Below are positions 14,799-58,065 of a stretch of 64,000 nucleotides of DNA, piece by piece. The position numbers and the translations under genes are program-made. The notes beneath the pieces are model-generated. The model had not been told where the DNA came from and searched no databases. It saw nothing but the letters and a program-made list of their open reading frames with translations. Positions within the stretch are counted from its first letter, which is position 1; every line of letters starts with the position of its first letter. Origin of the DNA: Raja brachyura (Eukaryota); assembly GCA_963514005.1 (NCBI GenBank), contig OY740821.1:14384001-14448000 (forward strand), read 5' to 3'.

Positions 14799-15983
<1,185 letters not shown>

Positions 15984-20984: not shown

Positions 20985-21590
20985 CAGTCACTGAGTCTAT
21001 GTTTGGTCTCGCCGATGGACAGGGAACACTGGATGTAGTCAATGAGTTGAGGTGGTACATGTGAACCTCATCTGAAAGGACTGTCTGTGTCCCTGGATGG
21101 AGTTGAGGGAGGAGCTATAACGTCGGCTGTTGCATCTCCTGTGATTGTAGGGGAGGTGGTGGTTTGGGTGCCAAGGCATGAGTGAACCAATGAGTTGCGG
21201 AGGGAACGGGTCTCTGTGGAAAGAGGAGTGTGGATACGAAGATGTGATTAGTGGTGGGATCCCATATTGGGTAATGGAAATGTCTGAGGATAATGTGTTG
21301 GATGTGGAGGCTGGAGGGGAAGGGGAGTAAGAGCAGAATGATGGGGCACAGAAGAGACACGAGTGAAGCCCCATGTATGAGAGATGGGGGGGAACCCACG
21401 TTCTCTGAAGGGTGATATCTCTGATGTGCTGGTATGGCAGACCTCGTCCTGGGAGCAGAGAGGAATTGAGAGTAGGGAATAGCATCTTTGCAAGAGGCAG
21501 GGTGGGAAGAAGTGTAGTCCAGATATCTGGGGCTCGGTAGGTTTGTAATATGCATCAATGGGTAGTCTTGTCTCCTGTGATGGAGAGAGA
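20985..21590 (-). mobile_element. Penelope-like element ORF fragment (RT C-terminus, linker, start of GIY-YIG), decayed
   Basis: YLDYTSSHPASCKDAIPYSQFL followed by RRCN...SIQG..QSFQMRFTCT and a YIQCS..IGETK-like segment, with frameshifts. Confidence 0.8.
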
Positions 21591-32624: not shown

Positions 32625-33365
32625 TAGATCGGGGCATTGAATACGAGTCAGGAAGTCATGACCGAGCTTTGGTTCGGCTGCATTTGGAGTTTTGCGTGCA
32701 GTTCCTGTCACCCAGTTACAGGAAAGATGTGGAGCCTTTGGAGAGGGTGCAGAGAAGGTTTACCAGAATGATGCCTGGATTGTGAGGTGTTAGCTACAGG
32801 GAGAGGTTAGACAGACTTAGATTGTTTTCTCTGGAACGCCAGAGGTTGAGGGGAGTCCTGATATAAGTATATAAAATGATGAGAGGCGTAGGTAGGGTCA
32901 GCAGGCAGACTTTTCTTTTCTCTCAGGATGGAAAAAACCTCAAATATAGAGAGCATAACTCTCTAGCCCTTCAGTCTGAAGAAGGGTCTTGACCCGAAAC
33001 GTCACCCATTCCTTCTCTCCAGAGATGCTGCCTGTCCCACTGAGTTACTCCAGCATTTTATGTCTACCTTCGATTCAGACCAGCATCTGCAGTTCTTTCC
33101 TACACACAGAGAGCATAGCTTTAAGGTGAGAGGAGCAAAGTTTAAAGGAGATGTGCGGGCAAATTTTTTTTTGACACAAAGGATGGCGAGTGCCTGGAAT
33201 GCACTGCCGTGGTGGTCAGATACAATCGTGGCGTTTAGGAAACTTATGGACATGCAGGGGATGAAGGGGTGTAGATTACGTGCAGGCAATGAGTGGTCAG
33301 AGATGATCTTGGCCTCATGTTCAACACATTGTGGGCTGCAGGGCCTGTTCCTGTACTGTACCATT
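32625..33365 (+). mobile_element. CR1 LINE 3' fragment interrupted by a solo pLTR insert
   Basis: Decayed RT (..LERVQRRFTRMMPGL..., HSFKVRGAKFKGDVRANFF.TQRMASAWNALP). Confidence 0.8.
32961..33107 (+). mobile_element. Solo Penelope pLTR-derived element with an intact minimal hammerhead motif
   Basis: CTGAAGA AGGGTCTTGACCC GAAACGTC at 32976-33003, flanked by AGAGAGCATA(A/G)CT direct repeats. Confidence 0.75.
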
Positions 33366-37837: not shown

Positions 37838-37975
<138 letters not shown>

Positions 37976-38133
37976 TCAGGAGTTGGTCTGAGGCAACTGG
38001 AAACCATCTGAAAGGGGACTTGTGCAAAAGTAGTGTGCTCACCACAATGCTGACATCTGCTGGAAACTCAAGGAACTGCAGCTGCAGTTGCGGACTCGTG
38101 GAGTAGAAACAAGAACACAAAGTGCTGGAGTAT

Positions 38134-38339
38134 TGCCCCTGTCCCACTTAGGAAACCTGAACGGAAACCTCTGGAGACTTTGCGCCCCACCCAAGGTTTC
38201 CGAGCGGTGCCCGGAGGTTTTTGTCCATCTCCCTAATGGTCGAAACTGACAAAAACCTCCGGGAACCGCACGGAAACCTTGGGTGGGGCACAAAGTCTCC
38301 AGAGGTTTCCGTTCAGGTTTCCTAAGTGGGACAGGGGCA
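38134..38339. mobile_element. Second, internally deleted copy of the same MITE, inserted in a Penelope pLTR
   Basis: Almost entirely palindromic, with the same TIRs and TAT/TAA flanks. Confidence 0.8.
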
Positions 38340-38342
38340 TAA

Positions 38343-38790
38343 ATCTGCATCTCCGGGGAATATGGATAGGTGATGTTTCGGGGCAGAACCCTTTTTCAGA
38401 TGTATTGTGGTGGGGTGAGGGGGGGGTGGGGGGAGAAAGCTGAAAGAAATGAGAGACAGACAAAGCCTGGCAAGTGATAGGTGGATATAGGTGAGGGTTT
38501 TTATTGGATAGGTGAAAGATTGAACAAAGTCGGATATGAAGGGACAGAAGGTGTGAGTTAAGGACAGAAGAGTTGTCAATTGTGAAACCAGAGGAAGGAA
38601 TGTAGGTGGGAGGGGGAGGAGAGAAATGGGTGCAAATCCAGGTAGGGCGCAGGGAAGAGAAGGGGGGGGGGGGGGGGTAGCTAAAATTGGAGAATTCAAT
38701 GTTCATAATATTGGGTTGTAAGCTACCTATGTGGAATATGAGGTGCGGTTCCTCCAGTGTGTGAGGCCTCGCTCTGGCAATGTTCAGGGG
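38343..38790 (-). mobile_element. Penelope-like 3' end (GIY-YIG C-terminus, 3' UTR, pLTR)
   Basis: LEEPHLIFHIGSLQPNIMNIEFSNF, then a pyrimidine-rich UTR, then the CTGAAAAAGGGTTCTGCCCCGAAACATC pLTR motif. Confidence 0.8.
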
Positions 38791-40722
38791 GTCAAGCAGC
38801 ATCTGATCAGGAAATGGACAGGCGATGTTTCAGATTGGGACCCTTCTTCAGACTAAAGAAGATTCCCTCAGTGTGAAGGCAGAGCCCTGGCTCGAAATGT
38901 TGTTTGTCCATTTCCCCCCCACAGATGCTGTCAGTCAGACCCACCGAGTCTCTCCAGTATTTCAGTTTTGTTTTTTGCTCAAGATTTCAGCATCTGCAGT
39001 CACTTGTGTCTCCCTTGTATACCACAGAACCTTTTGATGCTTCAAAATGCTATCCTTAATGTACATGTTGGGCTGTGACTAGCAACCAATGATTTAGGGT
39101 TTATCTAATGGCTGACAATCTCGTCAAGCCATCTCCAAATTAGCAGATGGGTAACAAATACAAGTGAAACTAGGATTGTGATACGAGAGGCCAGACTCCC
39201 AGAGGATGTGAGCTGCATCTGGCTCACAGGCTACAGATGCAGCTCACAGCTTCCTCCTGGAAATAATCAGCTACTATTTTAGTGCAAGTTCATTTGCTGA
39301 GGTCAATTGCAATTTATTTTTTAAAGGGAAATGGGAAAACCCTGGAAAGCTGGAATAAAGCCAAAATGCTGGAGATACGGCAGGTCAGGCAAGATGTGCG
39401 AAGAGATTCAGCTTAAGGCCAAAAGCATTCACATAAAAGTCTTTGCTGGATAATTAACAGAGGGCTGATTTTAGAGATTGAGTTTGCATTCCATGTTGAC
39501 GTTACATATAAATGCAGCATTTTCTAATCTATGCTTAACTGAGACAAAACAAATGGTACCTGCACCACCACATTTTGTGATAGGAGATATTTGTCCAAGA
39601 ATAAAATGTAATTTGATTTCATCAAATCCAGTGCCGACAGCTTCCAATGAAATCAGATCAAGATACAGCCCCACCCAGAGTACAATTCGACACACCCATT
39701 CCATATTTTAATAGTGCACCCACTTCATTTTGTAACAATCCTTCCTCATGATTTGGCTGCATCCATCCCATCCTTTGCACTTGATACACCACAAGCCTCG
39801 TCACATGAATAACGATCTCACAGTGAAGCACTGAGAGCTGATGAAATATCAATTCTGCGGTTGGCAAATGGGATTAGACAGCAAGGCGAAGGCTTAAATA
39901 TGAGAGTGTGCATTGAAGCGGTTTTGGACATTAGGATATCGTTTTATGTTCTGCAATTCTGCATTCCCAAGGCTCATTTTTTATTCACAGTACCTGGAAG
40001 GTACCAGGGGAGTGGTGGAAGCAGATACCATAGTGGCTTTTAAGAGGCTTTGAATATGCAGGGACTGGAGGGACATGGTCCATGTGCAGGCACAAGGGAT
40101 TAGTTTAATTTGACATCAATGATCTACATTGGTCCACTGAAGTAACCATGGCACAGGGATGCAAGCAGAAGCCTCCACGTGGCGCATCCCGGGCAATGCT
40201 GACGACAGGAACTGTACCGCAGTGACTGACTGAAGTGGCCAATTCTGCAACCACCGACCGTCAACCGTCACTGAGCGACCGGAAGGACGTGATATAGAAG
40301 ATGGCCGTTCACGAGGAAGAAGACGGTGGCACAACCCCGTTCTAAGGCATGAGGAAGAGTAATACCACGGTACATTGGGCACTTCCTGGAGCAATGTTTT
40401 GGTGGCCACGGGGCTGAGGTTTGCCAATTTATGTCATCCTAATCAGATTGTCACAACTTCCAGCAGACTTTGATTGGGTCCGTTTTGGAGGTGAAATGAG
40501 CGCTCAAACTCCCTAATACCCGTCGGCCCCAGGAAAGTTAGAGATGCCATCGCTCAACAAGGGTGATGTGAATCAGGTTCCCTAATTCACTCTGCAAGCA
40601 TCTGGGTTGAGATGGTAAACCACAACTGACCAAGCCATATTAGGTTAAAGTCTGGGTTGCGAAACAAATTATGCAAACCAGGCCCGACTTTAGCAAAAGG
40701 TTAACATGAAACCTTGATTTAC

Positions 40723-46761: not shown

Positions 46762-46806
46762 CCATTTCAGGTTGACACCCTTCAGTCTGAAGAAGGGTCC
46801 CGACCC

Positions 46807-47132
46807 AAAACATCACCTATCCATGTTCTCCACAGATGCTGCCTGACCCGCTGAGTTACTCCAGCACTCTGTGAAACGTCACCTATCCATGTTCTCCACA
46901 GATGCTGCCTGACCCGCTGAGTTACTCCAGCACTCTGTGAAACGTCACCTATCCATGTTCTCCACAGATGCTGCCTGACCCGCTGAGTTACTCCAGCACT
47001 CTGTGAAACGTCACCTATCCATGTTCTCCACAGATGCTGCCTGACCCGCAGAGTTACTCCAGCACTCTGTGAAACGTCACCTATCCATGTTCTCCACAGA
47101 TGCTGCCTGACCCGCTGAGTTACTCCAACACT
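46807..47132 (+). repeat. Tandem array of five 66-bp units derived from the pLTR
   Basis: Units start at 46807, 46873, 46939, 47005 and 47071: GAAACGTCACCTATCCATGTTCTCCACAGATGCTGCCTGACCCGCTGAGTTACTCCAGCACTCTGT. Confidence 0.95.
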
Positions 47133-47674
47133 TTATGTCTTTTTCGGGGGAGAACATATATTAGGAGGACAAGGTGAACCTGGCTGTGAAACTTTTGGCC
47201 TAATCTACACGCAGTGTCTGGACTCGTTTAGTAAACAGCAACCACTCGATCGAGGCTGCAGAAAGCAGCTGCTGGCTGTGGTCCTCTGCCAGTTAGGCAC
47301 AAGGCCTGCTGCCCTGACACTGAGCTCCAGTTTGTAAAGATTTACCGGCCCGACTCAAAATGACAAGCAGCTTAAAATATGGAGCGGCATTGTTCTGTTT
47401 TGTTTCAATAAGTTTGCATGATGTATGCACAGCACGTACTCTGAAGGGGTTGAATTTGCAAATTCACAGTCCTGGACCTCAGTCAATAAATATCAAAAGA
47501 CAGCGCCGTCCTGAAGAACTTGCTTTCTTTGGAAAATGACGGCATCTGAATTGCTGATGAGCACACTTAACAGGTGAGACCACCTTCCTACCACCACCAC
47601 AAGCTCAAAATACTGTCTATATCCGAATATTGAGCACAGGGAAGACCCATGAAGCCCATCAGGAGATTTTGTGC

Positions 47675-47825
47675 AGGAAGGAACTGCAGATGCTGGTTTA
47701 AACCGAAGATAACACAAAAAGCTGGAGTAACTCAGCGGGCCAAGCAGCATCTCTAGTGAAAATTAATAGGTGACGTTTCGGGTCGAGACCCTTCTTCAGA
47801 CTGAGAGTCAAGGGAAAGGAAACAA
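47675..47825 (-). mobile_element. pLTR-derived element with an intact minimal hammerhead motif
   Basis: The reverse complement of 47770-47803 contains GTCTGAAGAAGGGTCTCGACCCGAAACGTCAC. Confidence 0.75.
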
Positions 47826-54619: not shown

Positions 54620-55027
54620 TCAGGCTGGGCGATCGTTTCACTGAACATCTCCGCTCAGTCCATATGAACCAACCATGATCACCCGGTTGCTCAGCATTTC
54701 AACTCCCCCTCCCATTCCCAATCTGACCTTTCTGTCCTGGGCCTCCTCCATTGTCAGAGTGAGGCCCAGCGCTAATTGGAGGAGCAGCACCTCATATTTT
54801 GCTTGGGTAGTTTACACCCCAGCAGTATGAACATTAACTTCAGACAGCCCTTGCTTTCTCTCTCCATCCCCTTCCCCTTCCCAGTTTTCCCACTAGTCTT
54901 ACTGTCACCAACTACATTCTATCCTTGTCCTGCCCCCTCCCCTGACATCAACCCGTAACGTCGGCCATTCCTTTTCTCCAGAGATGCTGCCTCACCTGCT
55001 GAGTTACTCCAGCACTTTGTGTCTACC
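54620..55027 (+). mobile_element. Penelope-like 3' end (GIY-YIG C-terminus, 3' UTR, pLTR)
   Basis: RLGDRFTEHLRSV...VAQHFNSPSHS...LEEQHLIFCLGSLHPSSMNINF, followed by AGAGATGCTGCCTCACCTGCTGAGTTACTCCAGC. Confidence 0.85.
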
Positions 55028-57809
55028 ATCACTCTAATCAGTCTACCCTTCCTCATGAATGGTGCCCACAACTATTCATAGTATTCCACTGGGAATATAA
55101 CCAGGGCTATGTATAAATATTGAAAAGAGACCACTGTAGTTGCCTATGTTGCAATAACTACCTTCCTTCCACATAAAACAGTTGTGAGATGTTTCTCAAC
55201 CTGGACTGGGTGCTATTATACTTGCAAATCCACTTCCTGGGTACTTATTTAATGTACTAATTCCATTTGCAGACACTTTTGTTCTCAAGCTGCTTTTCCT
55301 TGCTGTCTGTTTTTATGTGTTTTCCTCTTGTATGTTCCTTTGCAGATTTATTTGGTTCCCCTTTTGGCCGTACTACTGGCAAATGCTTCAAACTCCCTCT
55401 CGTTCCATCCCCGGCACCAACCCTCGGGCTCCTTTCAGCAGGAAAGTGGGGAAAAGAACGATTTAAAAATAGTCAAATATGGACATTTTTTTTAAAAAGG
55501 ACGGCAACTGGATACCAGAATGTTGAGACCAATGAAAGATCGCATTGCAAAATCACAATGCATGACGTGCTGCAACAGGGGTCAGACAATTCCATCTTTG
55601 CAAACAAAGCTGTGGCGTGGGGAAGAGGGACAGGGTGTAATCCAATCCGCTAATGTTTTCAGTCCAAATCTGCTTTTACCCAAAGAGGAAACATTCTCTA
55701 TTCAAACTTTGAAAGTTAATAACATCAGATAAAATCAGTCCTTTCTAGTGCATTTTTGGGAAATCACTACCATCACTCTTTTCTTCATCGCTTCCAACAG
55801 AATTTAGATTACTAATGAATTATTCATAAATTTTGTTTTACCTGCCAAAATTGAGTGGTGATTGATGGCTCCCATGGAGCAGTCATGTTGATGTATAACA
55901 CAGGAGAAACAGTGATACAGCTAGCATTGAAACCTGCACCTCTCCACAGTGATTACCTGAGCAACACAGTTATAGAGCATGAAACAGAGAGCTCGCGGGC
56001 AAGTTCTCAAGAATCATCTGGCACTTGTTCAAAACGACCAGGGGATCCTCTTTTAGATGAACCATTTTCACTTGTAGTTTCTGATCAGCATTTTTATGGA
56101 CTGCAGTGCACACACCTGCATGCAGATACCCACGAATAGATTGATACACTCCCAGACATCCATTCCGAGCACCCACACCCAAATTACAACGCAGAAAAGA
56201 GGCTATTCAATCAACCAGTGCACACCGCTGTTTACAGTATTTACTAACAGTAATCATAAATTCCACCAAATTCCTACATTTCTAATTCCTCTTTCTATCA
56301 ACTACTCTAATGATCAGTGATACTATCATAAATCATATTACAATCCAGAACTGAATGGCTGTCTTCTCGAGCTAAGATTCCCACACCTGATTGCTATCTG
56401 AACAACACTTGCTGTTAAGTGTATTTGAGTAGGTATTAATTTGAAGAATCTGTTGACACTCACTGGCATGTCTGAGGTGCCGATAGGCTGCAAGCACCTG
56501 TGAAACTGTGCCTGTGCCCTGAAACAAATGCTTGCAGGAACGAAAGTGGGCTCAAAACTGGAAGATTAAAAAAAAACATACAAAATTTCACTTTGCGGGC
56601 TTTGGATCAATATCGTGCAGAGCGCTACAAAATGTACAGTACCACAACACTCCACACACTGCTATGTTGAGCCTAATCACTTTCTTACTAATTGGGGATA
56701 GAGGAGATTTATGACGACATACAATGCAAATTAATTAAAAGAAAGTATTTTCTATCCTTATTTATTTATATTTTTTCAAATATAAATTTATGGCTCATAA
56801 ATTGCAGATCATGGTGAGACCAACAATGCTTTGTGTTCTGTCAGCACCCCCTCGCCCGCCCACCCACACCAACTTGCAAAATAAGAATGTAATCCATTTT
56901 ATGTTCTTCCTGAAAGAGACTCGGACTCAGCACTTTGGCAATTCCACTTATGCACCAGTGGCTAGCAGAAGCTGTGGGCAAAGGTCCTTCTTTGCATGTT
57001 TGAACTGATAGTAATCATCAAAAGAATTAAAAAGGGAGACTGTGACATTTTCTTTACAAAAAGGGGCTTTAGAAAGAGGAACTTTCTGTCACAAACTATT
57101 GTTGAAATGAAGTCCATTTTTTTCCCTCATATAAAGGGAATTGCTTGATAAAGAATATTAATGGAAATCGGGAGTGAGCAGGAGAGTGGGATCAGGTTAA
57201 ATGGGGAAACACAGAACTGTTTTAATCGGACAAATGGCTGCTGTCAAGACTAGACTGCTTTGCTGTCCTTCTCCATAGCATAATGATGGCATAAAAAGAC
57301 ACAGAGTTGCTGGAGTAACTCAGCAGGTCAGCCAGCATTTCTGGAGAACATGGATAGGTGATGTTTTGGGTCAGGACTCTTTCTCAGACCCGAGATGCTG
57401 CCTGACCGGCTGAGTTACTCCAGCATTTTGTGTCTTTTTTTTTTGCAATTCCTTGCATCTAAATAATGATGCCAACTGGATTGCTGGATTGCCATCTGCA
57501 TTTCAGCATCTTTGTATGGGGGAAAAACATTATTTTGTAAAAACAATACAGCACAGAAGTAAATCATGAACAAAGATCAGAAGGAGCACACAACCTGCCA
57601 AACTTTGTCCATCATTTATGAATCTAGTTGTATCAATCGCTACATACAACACAACGCAATGATCCATGTACAAGAGGAAAAGAGTAAATAGGGTAGTTTC
57701 CAAATATTATTTTGCTCCAACATGCATAAAGTAAATGTCAGCTGTTGTAAGTGGGAGCAGTCCCTTCCCAAGTGCTTCGGTGTTGACGTGTTCAACACAG
57801 ATTTGGAAG

Positions 57810-58065
57810 CATAGAGACAAAATGCTGGAGTGATTCTGCGGGTCAGGCAGCATCTCTGGAGAAAATGGATTGGTGCCATTTCGGGTCGGGAACCTTCTTC
57901 AGGTCTGAAGAAGGGTCCAGACCCAAAATGTCACCTATTCATTTTGGTCTGAAGATGGGTCCGGATCAGAAACGTCACCTATCCATTTTCTCCAGAGATG
58001 CTGCCTGATCCGCTGAGTTACTCCAGTCCTTTTGCGTAAACCAGCATCAAGAGTTTGTTGTTATT
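57810..58065. mobile_element. Inverted plus tandem pLTR element with three hammerhead-like cores
   Basis: One - strand core at about 57870-57902 and two + strand cores at 57905 and 57949. Flanked by a 13-bp direct repeat ACAGATTTGGAAG. Confidence 0.75.

Follow-up and report, generated by a model that had tools for sequence, protein, structure and literature searches.

The question raised by this locus is whether the 28 nt at 32976–33003 (+) of the window, a stretch of 64,000 nt of skate (Raja brachyura) DNA, form a hammerhead ribozyme, as an earlier note had proposed, and, if so, to which element the ribozyme belongs and how its copies came about. Our best explanation, which we hold as a whole with a probability of roughly 80%, is a minimal hammerhead motif in the pseudo-LTR (pLTR) of an abundant Neptune-type Penelope-like element (PLE), whose copy at this locus is a 135-base antisense intronic insertion.

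The letters of the motif are present as first read. A CTGAAGA box (32976–32982) is followed by an extra A (32983), the hairpin GGGT-CTTG-ACCC (32984–32995), and GAAA-CG-TC (32996–33003), which correspond to the C3–A9 box, the extra base A9.1 between positions 9 and 10.1, a helix II with the G10.1–C11.1 pair, G12–A15.1, the self-complementary C15.2–G16.2, U16.1, and C17. This is the type I order of CUGANGA box, GAAA box and UH site, with an ACGU palindrome at 15.2–16.2 standing in for helix III. The core passes a generic descriptor and agrees with the consensus that Cervera and De la Pena (2014; PMC4209133, here and below as far as its available text goes) published for minimal PLE hammerheads, and cleavage is predicted after 33003, 3' of C17, i.e., after +28 when C3 is numbered +1. 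Instead of the 5 bp and 2-nt loop of the earlier note, helix II is better drawn with 4 bp (32984–32987 paired with 32992–32995) and a CUUG tetraloop. Helix I has just 2 bp, as the last G-T of TCAGT at 32971–32975 (+) pairs with 33004–33005 and the next two positions are unpaired; among 30 descriptor matches, 17 have such a 2-bp helix (GU/AC or GU/GC) and only 4 a longer one. The proposed extension of the GT/AC flanks to a 4-bp AGGT/ACCT helix I at 57901–57936 had to be abandoned, as that copy has mutations at G12 and C15.2. An Rfam covariance-model search gave no hammerhead match in the window or on one intact pLTR; this is expected for a motif without helix III and counts only against membership in the Rfam model. 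The motif is confirmed as a minimal type I hammerhead sequence in the pLTR of a Neptune-type PLE, a kind already described in 2014, and the present case is a further member and not a new class.

The attribution to a Penelope pLTR is borne out by coding sequences elsewhere in the genome. At all 18 loci selected for their long frames, the motif trails the RT/GIY-YIG frame on the same strand, about 220–260 nt 3' of the GIY-YIG stop. At 20 loci with tandem copies, found by searching with the 5' region of the element, the motif is continuous with leader and ORF, whose first Met is at +164. Five of these 20 have an unbroken 1,204-codon frame flanked by the motif, the intact frames being 97.6–99.9% identical, and six have same-strand motifs on either side of the coding region, about 3,960–3,990 nt apart. 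The intact frame contains DKG and YIDD motifs, a CX4CxxC linker at residue 1071, and a CCHH motif from residue 1111. It is a single ORF with RT and C-terminal GIY-YIG, as in endonuclease-bearing PLEs, and pLTRs from partial tandems, inverted 5' copies and a PLE tail are all found in the family. In Pfam, the RVT_1 and GIY-YIG matches on the full frame both stay under the curated cut-off, with the GIY-YIG fragment above it, and the closest named protein relatives (Mobula, 74%; Chiloscyllium, 70%; Rhincodon, 68%) carry no clade names. We call the element Neptune-type by the sequence criteria of a CX2-5CxxC linker and a CCHH endonuclease that are given for this clade in the available text of Craig et al. 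(2021; bioRxiv 10.1101/2021.04.23.441226, PMC8557442). The element is abundant and likely recently active, and its intact, near-identical members exist as material for biochemistry. A search with the GIY-YIG fragment returned 121,006 first-look candidates, a figure that is not a copy number. The 3' UTR from the stop codon to the YCAGT ahead of the motif varies by subfamily between about 70 and 250 nt and is highly divergent, and the sequence from YCAGT onward is conserved.

In the window, we found 11 near matches with up to three mismatches, versus none in 100 shuffles, and the generic descriptor is passed three times. The second intact core, at 47772–47799 (−), lies in sense orientation within an intron of a kinase gene, and the third, at 9391–9418 (+), has one G-U wobble in helix II. 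With only these three copies passing, and with stem and boxes lost in most others, the claim that the stem is kept between copies does not hold. The count of about two dozen fragments, in contrast, is consistent with 26 matches to an anchor downstream of the ribozyme and with 40 blastn pieces. As the note had stated, the repeat follows GIY-YIG remnants at two places, although the ribozyme is damaged in both: at 54622–55030 (+), a GIY-YIG remnant (54622–54847, +; tblastn, E 2e-18) is followed by 3' UTR and a pLTR whose ribozyme has lost its 5' half, including the CUGANGA box, and at 38347–38757 (−), a short C-terminal GIY-YIG remnant (38683–38757, −; E 6e-4) is followed by 3' UTR and a pLTR with a core at 38372–38399 in which G8 is mutated. 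The latter remnant is abutted by a near-perfect inverted repeat of about 210 bp (38131–38342), which is MITE-like, occurs in several copies in the window, and is the source of a weak MIR837 Rfam match. An old remnant of the RT-to-endonuclease linker of a related element lies at 21048–21525 (−; tblastn, E 3e-13), and at 46781–47140 (+), a pLTR copy is followed by four 66-nt tandem units without the CUGANGA box.

Exact counts across the 2.7-Gb genome substantiate the very high copy number. The 28-mer occurs 50,608 times, and full cores, defined by a pattern with all boxes, helix II and both helix I pairs, occur 61,893 times, or about 23 per Mb; the reversed controls gave 0 in both cases. For fragments, 98 pieces of 10 kb at arbitrary coordinates contained 273 matches to the downstream anchor, which extrapolates to about 752,000 fragments genome-wide (bootstrap 637,000–871,000), with 0 matches in shuffles of the first 58 pieces. 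Matches at piece edges were set aside; of the other 252, the ribozyme region is retained in 157 and the boxes in 38, and a strict test leaves 20. The generic descriptor gave 30 matches in the sampled 980 kb, versus 0.3 in shuffles, and all belong to the family under study, with no other hammerhead family in these 980 kb. None of 17 sampled intact cores has an intact same-strand partner within its own 10-kb piece, and since such partners are rare, the dispersed copies are likely inert. One short, young tandem unit, 239 bp long (G000:C1:660007-660311), carries two intact cores on the same strand as well as an inverted copy, and is a possible natural dimer substrate.

How far the letters of the motif are maintained bears on whether it functions as a ribozyme at all. 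Majorities of seven subfamilies, to which 143 of the 157 copies could be assigned, differ at none of the 11 catalytic core positions, and they keep the palindrome and both helix I pairs; the one exception is CpG decay of position 16.2 in two majorities. In helix II, a single column switches from U-A to U-G with pairing preserved, and changes are tolerated at C17/U17 and in loop II, where three of four columns vary. Downstream of the core, 9 of 12 columns are variable. The classes were built from spacer and leader columns, which inflates the variation in both; columns −12 to −6 of this comparison are mostly flanking DNA. The leader anchor downstream, with 6 of 32 columns variable, comes close to the core in conservation, and ribozyme-specific selection is therefore not isolated by this comparison. 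Two-sided compensatory changes were absent among the subfamily majorities, which are very alike and differ by one-sided changes only; counted over all 157 copies, two-sided changes number 4, 0, 0 and 1 at the four pairs of helix II, whose positions are paired in 131–143 copies. The palindromic C-G at 15.2–16.2 is found in 81 of 157, the remainder being mostly CpG-decay forms, and G12 is kept in 110; single copies lose G12 and G16.2 via CpG loss, and catalytic sites decay as fast as other sites.

These data might be taken to indicate a non-cleaving vestige with a 2-bp helix I, in which an overlapping promoter or protein-binding element keeps the letters. The short helix I, the similar conservation of the leader, and the scarcity of copy ends at the cut site (see below) would fit this, as would the unfavourable folding of the monomer, in which helix II reaches a probability of only 0.0–0.35 and the favoured alternative pairs the helix II strands with the cut site. 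Minimal PLE hammerheads are also weakly active in vitro (PMC4209133), and 8 of 9 Xenopus dimers stayed uncleaved according to the available text of a preprint (bioRxiv 10.64898/2026.07.22.740005). However, a poor monomer fold is also what one would predict for motifs dependent on a dimer or a protein, as described for minimal PLE hammerheads (PMC4209133; PMC11167929; and, in its available text, PMC6765202), a helix I of 2 bp occurs among the published motifs, namely in Drosophila and Culex (PMC4209133), and the anole motif cleaves with protein (PMC11167929). Together with the constancy of core, palindrome and helix I pairs in the subfamily majorities, this makes a vestige unlikely. By analogy to these systems, we consider it probable that the motif cleaves only as a dimer via the ACGU palindrome and/or when the protein of the element binds, and that this would occur in full-length element transcripts, with their two motifs spaced by about 4 kb.

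The copy itself spans approximately 32971–33106, i.e., 135 bases. The core is followed by the rest of the pLTR, the 5' leader of the element, at 33004–33106 (+), which extends to the longer of two 3' ends and includes the optional PLE tail. The copy is flanked by the target-site duplication AGAGAGCATA at 32948–32957 (+) and by the identical 10-mer at 33108–33117 (+), and about 15 nt of fold-back filler lie between the left duplication and its 5' side. It interrupts what we take to be an older LINE 3' fragment, CR1-like in appearance, at 32640–33340. In several subfamilies, AGAUGCUG and CAGCAUCU pair to an 8-bp helix that encloses the leader from the ribozyme to the second 3' end; this helix is located at 33023–33093 of the window and at 3380–3445 of the sampled locus L250 (z −0.9 and −1.9), and is a modeled candidate for an RT-recognition structure.

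The host gene encodes an OSR1/SPAK-family kinase, which may be a third paralogue as judged from synteny, with exons at about 25450–48220 (−). Its neighbour in tail-to-tail arrangement is a LIMA1/EPLIN-like gene with a final exon near 14970–15983 (+). The copy sits between the kinase exons near 37936 and 29649 and was thus correctly called intronic, and as it is antisense to the gene, a point missed in the earlier note, it cannot cut the host pre-mRNA; it is a dead-end insertion. For the same reason, it is very improbable that the host employs these ribozymes to process its introns, an idea that could otherwise appeal to the genomic density of intact cores and to the sense-strand core of the kinase gene at 47772–47799; the decay of catalytic positions at the rate seen elsewhere and the rarity of partners also speak against it. 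A separate HDV/CPEB3-like ribozyme candidate lies in an intron of the same gene at 40156–40247 (+), antisense to the host and ahead of a CpG-rich stretch. Judged by its letters, its structure would be complete, with P1 of 7 bp, P2 of 6 bp, P3 of 3 bp, P1.1 CC/GG, and a C-N-A-A joiner with the catalytic C. It is the sole match of an HDV-like descriptor in the window (0 in 20 shuffles), it scores 24.3 bits with the Rfam CPEB3 model, under the gathering score of 35, and no second copy was found in 1.79 Mb.

An unexpected pattern was seen at the ends of the copies. We mapped 57 copies that match the pattern of the youngest subfamily, a few close-subfamily copies included. Their 5' ends lie at −5 to +3 in 30 cases, at least 20 nt upstream in 14, and at +28/+29 in only 2, with ends also scattered over +1 to +10. 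Their 3' ends lie at +90 to +98 in 35 and at +127 to +133 in 10, positions that bound the PLE tail. Across all subfamilies, 88 of 252 begin at −6 to +3, a number possibly inflated, as older subfamilies may be without an upstream reference, and 1 of 252 begins at +28/+29. Exact genome-wide counts fall from 47,877 for copies reaching from +9 to 29,278 from −2, which is 4.8% per base, and then by 24% and 20% over the next two bases (22,245 from −3; 17,781 from −4); the subsequent drop to 11,733 at −6 is confounded by subfamily. Because both 3' classes share one 5' edge, the stop depends on position and not on length. Furthermore, since the 5' ends avoid the cut site, and cut RNA would give copies from +29, it is highly likely that most new copies derive from RNA left uncut at the motif.

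These same ends help to judge a further alternative, in which the short unit would be a non-autonomous element in its own right, a retrozyme or SINE propagated through transcripts or circles of its own. The upstream 3' UTR is retained in only about one in four young copies (14,907 with the upstream 20 nt versus 56,323 with the leader), target-site duplications flank short copies, and a few tandem units exist, as at 46781–47140. However, the short copies match the pLTR of the autonomous element and have its two 3' ends, and they begin ahead of the cut site. Tandem units with a complete hammerhead each, which characterize non-LTR retrozymes, were not encountered at any of the 17 sampled intact cores, and those of the window are devoid of the CUGANGA box. 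We regard such an independent element as improbable.

As to what determines the 5' edge, our tentative preference, held at slightly below even odds, is that the RNA of the element begins at YCAGT, 2–3 nt before C3. In 20 upstream-intact copies, C, A and G of this pentamer (−5 to −1) are kept in 18 and the T in 19, and positions −6 to −10 vary; YCAGT is thus kept although helix I uses just its final two bases. We take it to resemble an initiator, and also a splice acceptor. If RT initiated internally at +94 or +131 and copied to the RNA 5' end, and if the resulting 95–135-nt cDNA were inserted directly, such a start site would account for the SINE-like flood of short copies and for the 2-bp helix I; the inserted copies would then decay neutrally, quickest at CpG sites. 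Several findings count against this start. Six of eight long copies that reach the upstream motif continue beyond it, and in Drosophila virilis, transcription begins well upstream of the ribozyme: an intron opens 46 nt downstream of the start site and has the hammerhead at its end (PMC2377424, PMC4209133, in their available text). A G just before the 5' edge, as a cap might leave, is in excess (4,033 of 7,033, 57% versus 31% expected), but GTCT microhomology also explains this in the 30 contexts read: of 20 G cases among these loci, the duplication was followed by G or GG alone in 3, each of which was compatible with the microhomology as well. Contig ends near the 5' edge were discarded as start-site evidence, as they reflect repeat branching in the assembled contigs.

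The main rival, which we consider somewhat less probable than an RNA start at YCAGT, retains the same element and motif but explains the 5' pile-up by an RT roadblock or template-switch site. Candidates would be splicing factors on the pyrimidine tract and YCAG, the folded ribozyme, or the near-palindrome TCAG-T-CTGA. Upstream-intact copies have a pyrimidine tract and CAG ahead of the motif, junction fillers often repeat internal GAAGG/GTCT, and the spread of ends across +1 to +10 fits as well, as does the D. virilis intron, which terminates at helix I (PMC4209133). An inverted pLTR within 20 nt of the 5' end, found in 81 of 229 short copies, may point to fold-back, but such inversions are no commoner at the edge itself (27 of 88). 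Against this rival, neither a common upstream exon in the short copies read nor a clean GT..AG joint among 15 of 191 joints in assembled contigs was observed. Returning to the start at YCAGT, the more specific proposal of a hammerhead at the 5' end of the transcript that overlaps an internal promoter, with the short copies as 'strong-stop'-like cDNAs inserted without cleavage, is for us a possibility of about the same rank as the roadblock. If true, the genome would record the first step of PLE reverse transcription at an Alu-like scale, cleavage would not define the template, and the ribozyme would be a regulator, by decapping or termination.

The skate motif agrees with the minimal hammerheads of metazoan PLEs in its CUGANGA-H box, the G10.1–C11.1 helix II, GAAA, the palindromic C-G for helix III, and UH, and also in its location in pLTRs and in mostly solitary copies (PMC4209133). 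With 4 bp in helix II and 2 bp in helix I, its stems are among the shorter ones published, and its 61,893 intact cores exceed the approximately 9,000 of Xenopus and 4,000 of the coelacanth (PMC4209133). Cartilaginous fish do not appear in the supplement file of that study that was searched. One chondrichthyan with retrozymes and PLEs is described in the available text of a preprint whose supplement may list the skate family (bioRxiv 10.64898/2026.07.22.740005). In the openly searchable literature, we found no description of the family or of the 5' pile-up, and no paper that joins hammerhead ribozyme, cartilaginous fish and retrotransposon.

With the Neptune clade, the element shares the RT ORF, the CX2-5CxxC linker and the CCHH GIY-YIG, as well as partial tandems, inverted 5'-truncated copies and a 30–40 bp tail, but the estimated 750,000 fragments far exceed the 37,000 copies of Naiads that were termed exceptional (Craig et al., 2021). 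Animal non-LTR retrozymes likewise have type I hammerheads, high copy numbers and a PLE relationship, but the cases in the available text of PMC7229834 are tandem units with canonical hammerheads, and here we see dispersed pLTR ends. As many as 120,000 copies are known from the axolotl, but spread over about 28 Gb they are roughly five-fold sparser than those of the skate (PMC7229834; bioRxiv 10.64898/2026.07.22.740005, both as available). The Pr77 internal promoter of L1Tc, with its HDV-like ribozyme, is a precedent for an overlap of ribozyme and promoter at a retroelement 5' end according to the available text of PMC3383444, although ribozyme class and retroelement are different, and our promoter is putative.

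A functional parallel is PAc, a Poseidon element of Anolis, for which uncut RNA is the main template in vitro, RT begins internally at two sites, and the ribozyme requires protein (Frangieh et al., 2024; PMC11167929). The two internal 3' end positions that bound the tail and, very probably, the preference for uncut RNA recur in the skate. In contrast to the first Met at +164 seen here, the PAc ORF starts inside the ribozyme, and the main text of that study mentions no accumulation of 5' ends at the edge of the ribozyme. The skate family thus adds a host group and a scale of about 23 intact cores per Mb, which is above the published counts compared, and its tens of thousands of young copies allow base-level mapping of both ends. 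It offers test material for the open question of the role of PLE hammerheads and the origin of pLTRs. Its end map agrees with the in vitro work on the anole element, and adds a 5' stop that any model of PLE retrotransposition must explain.
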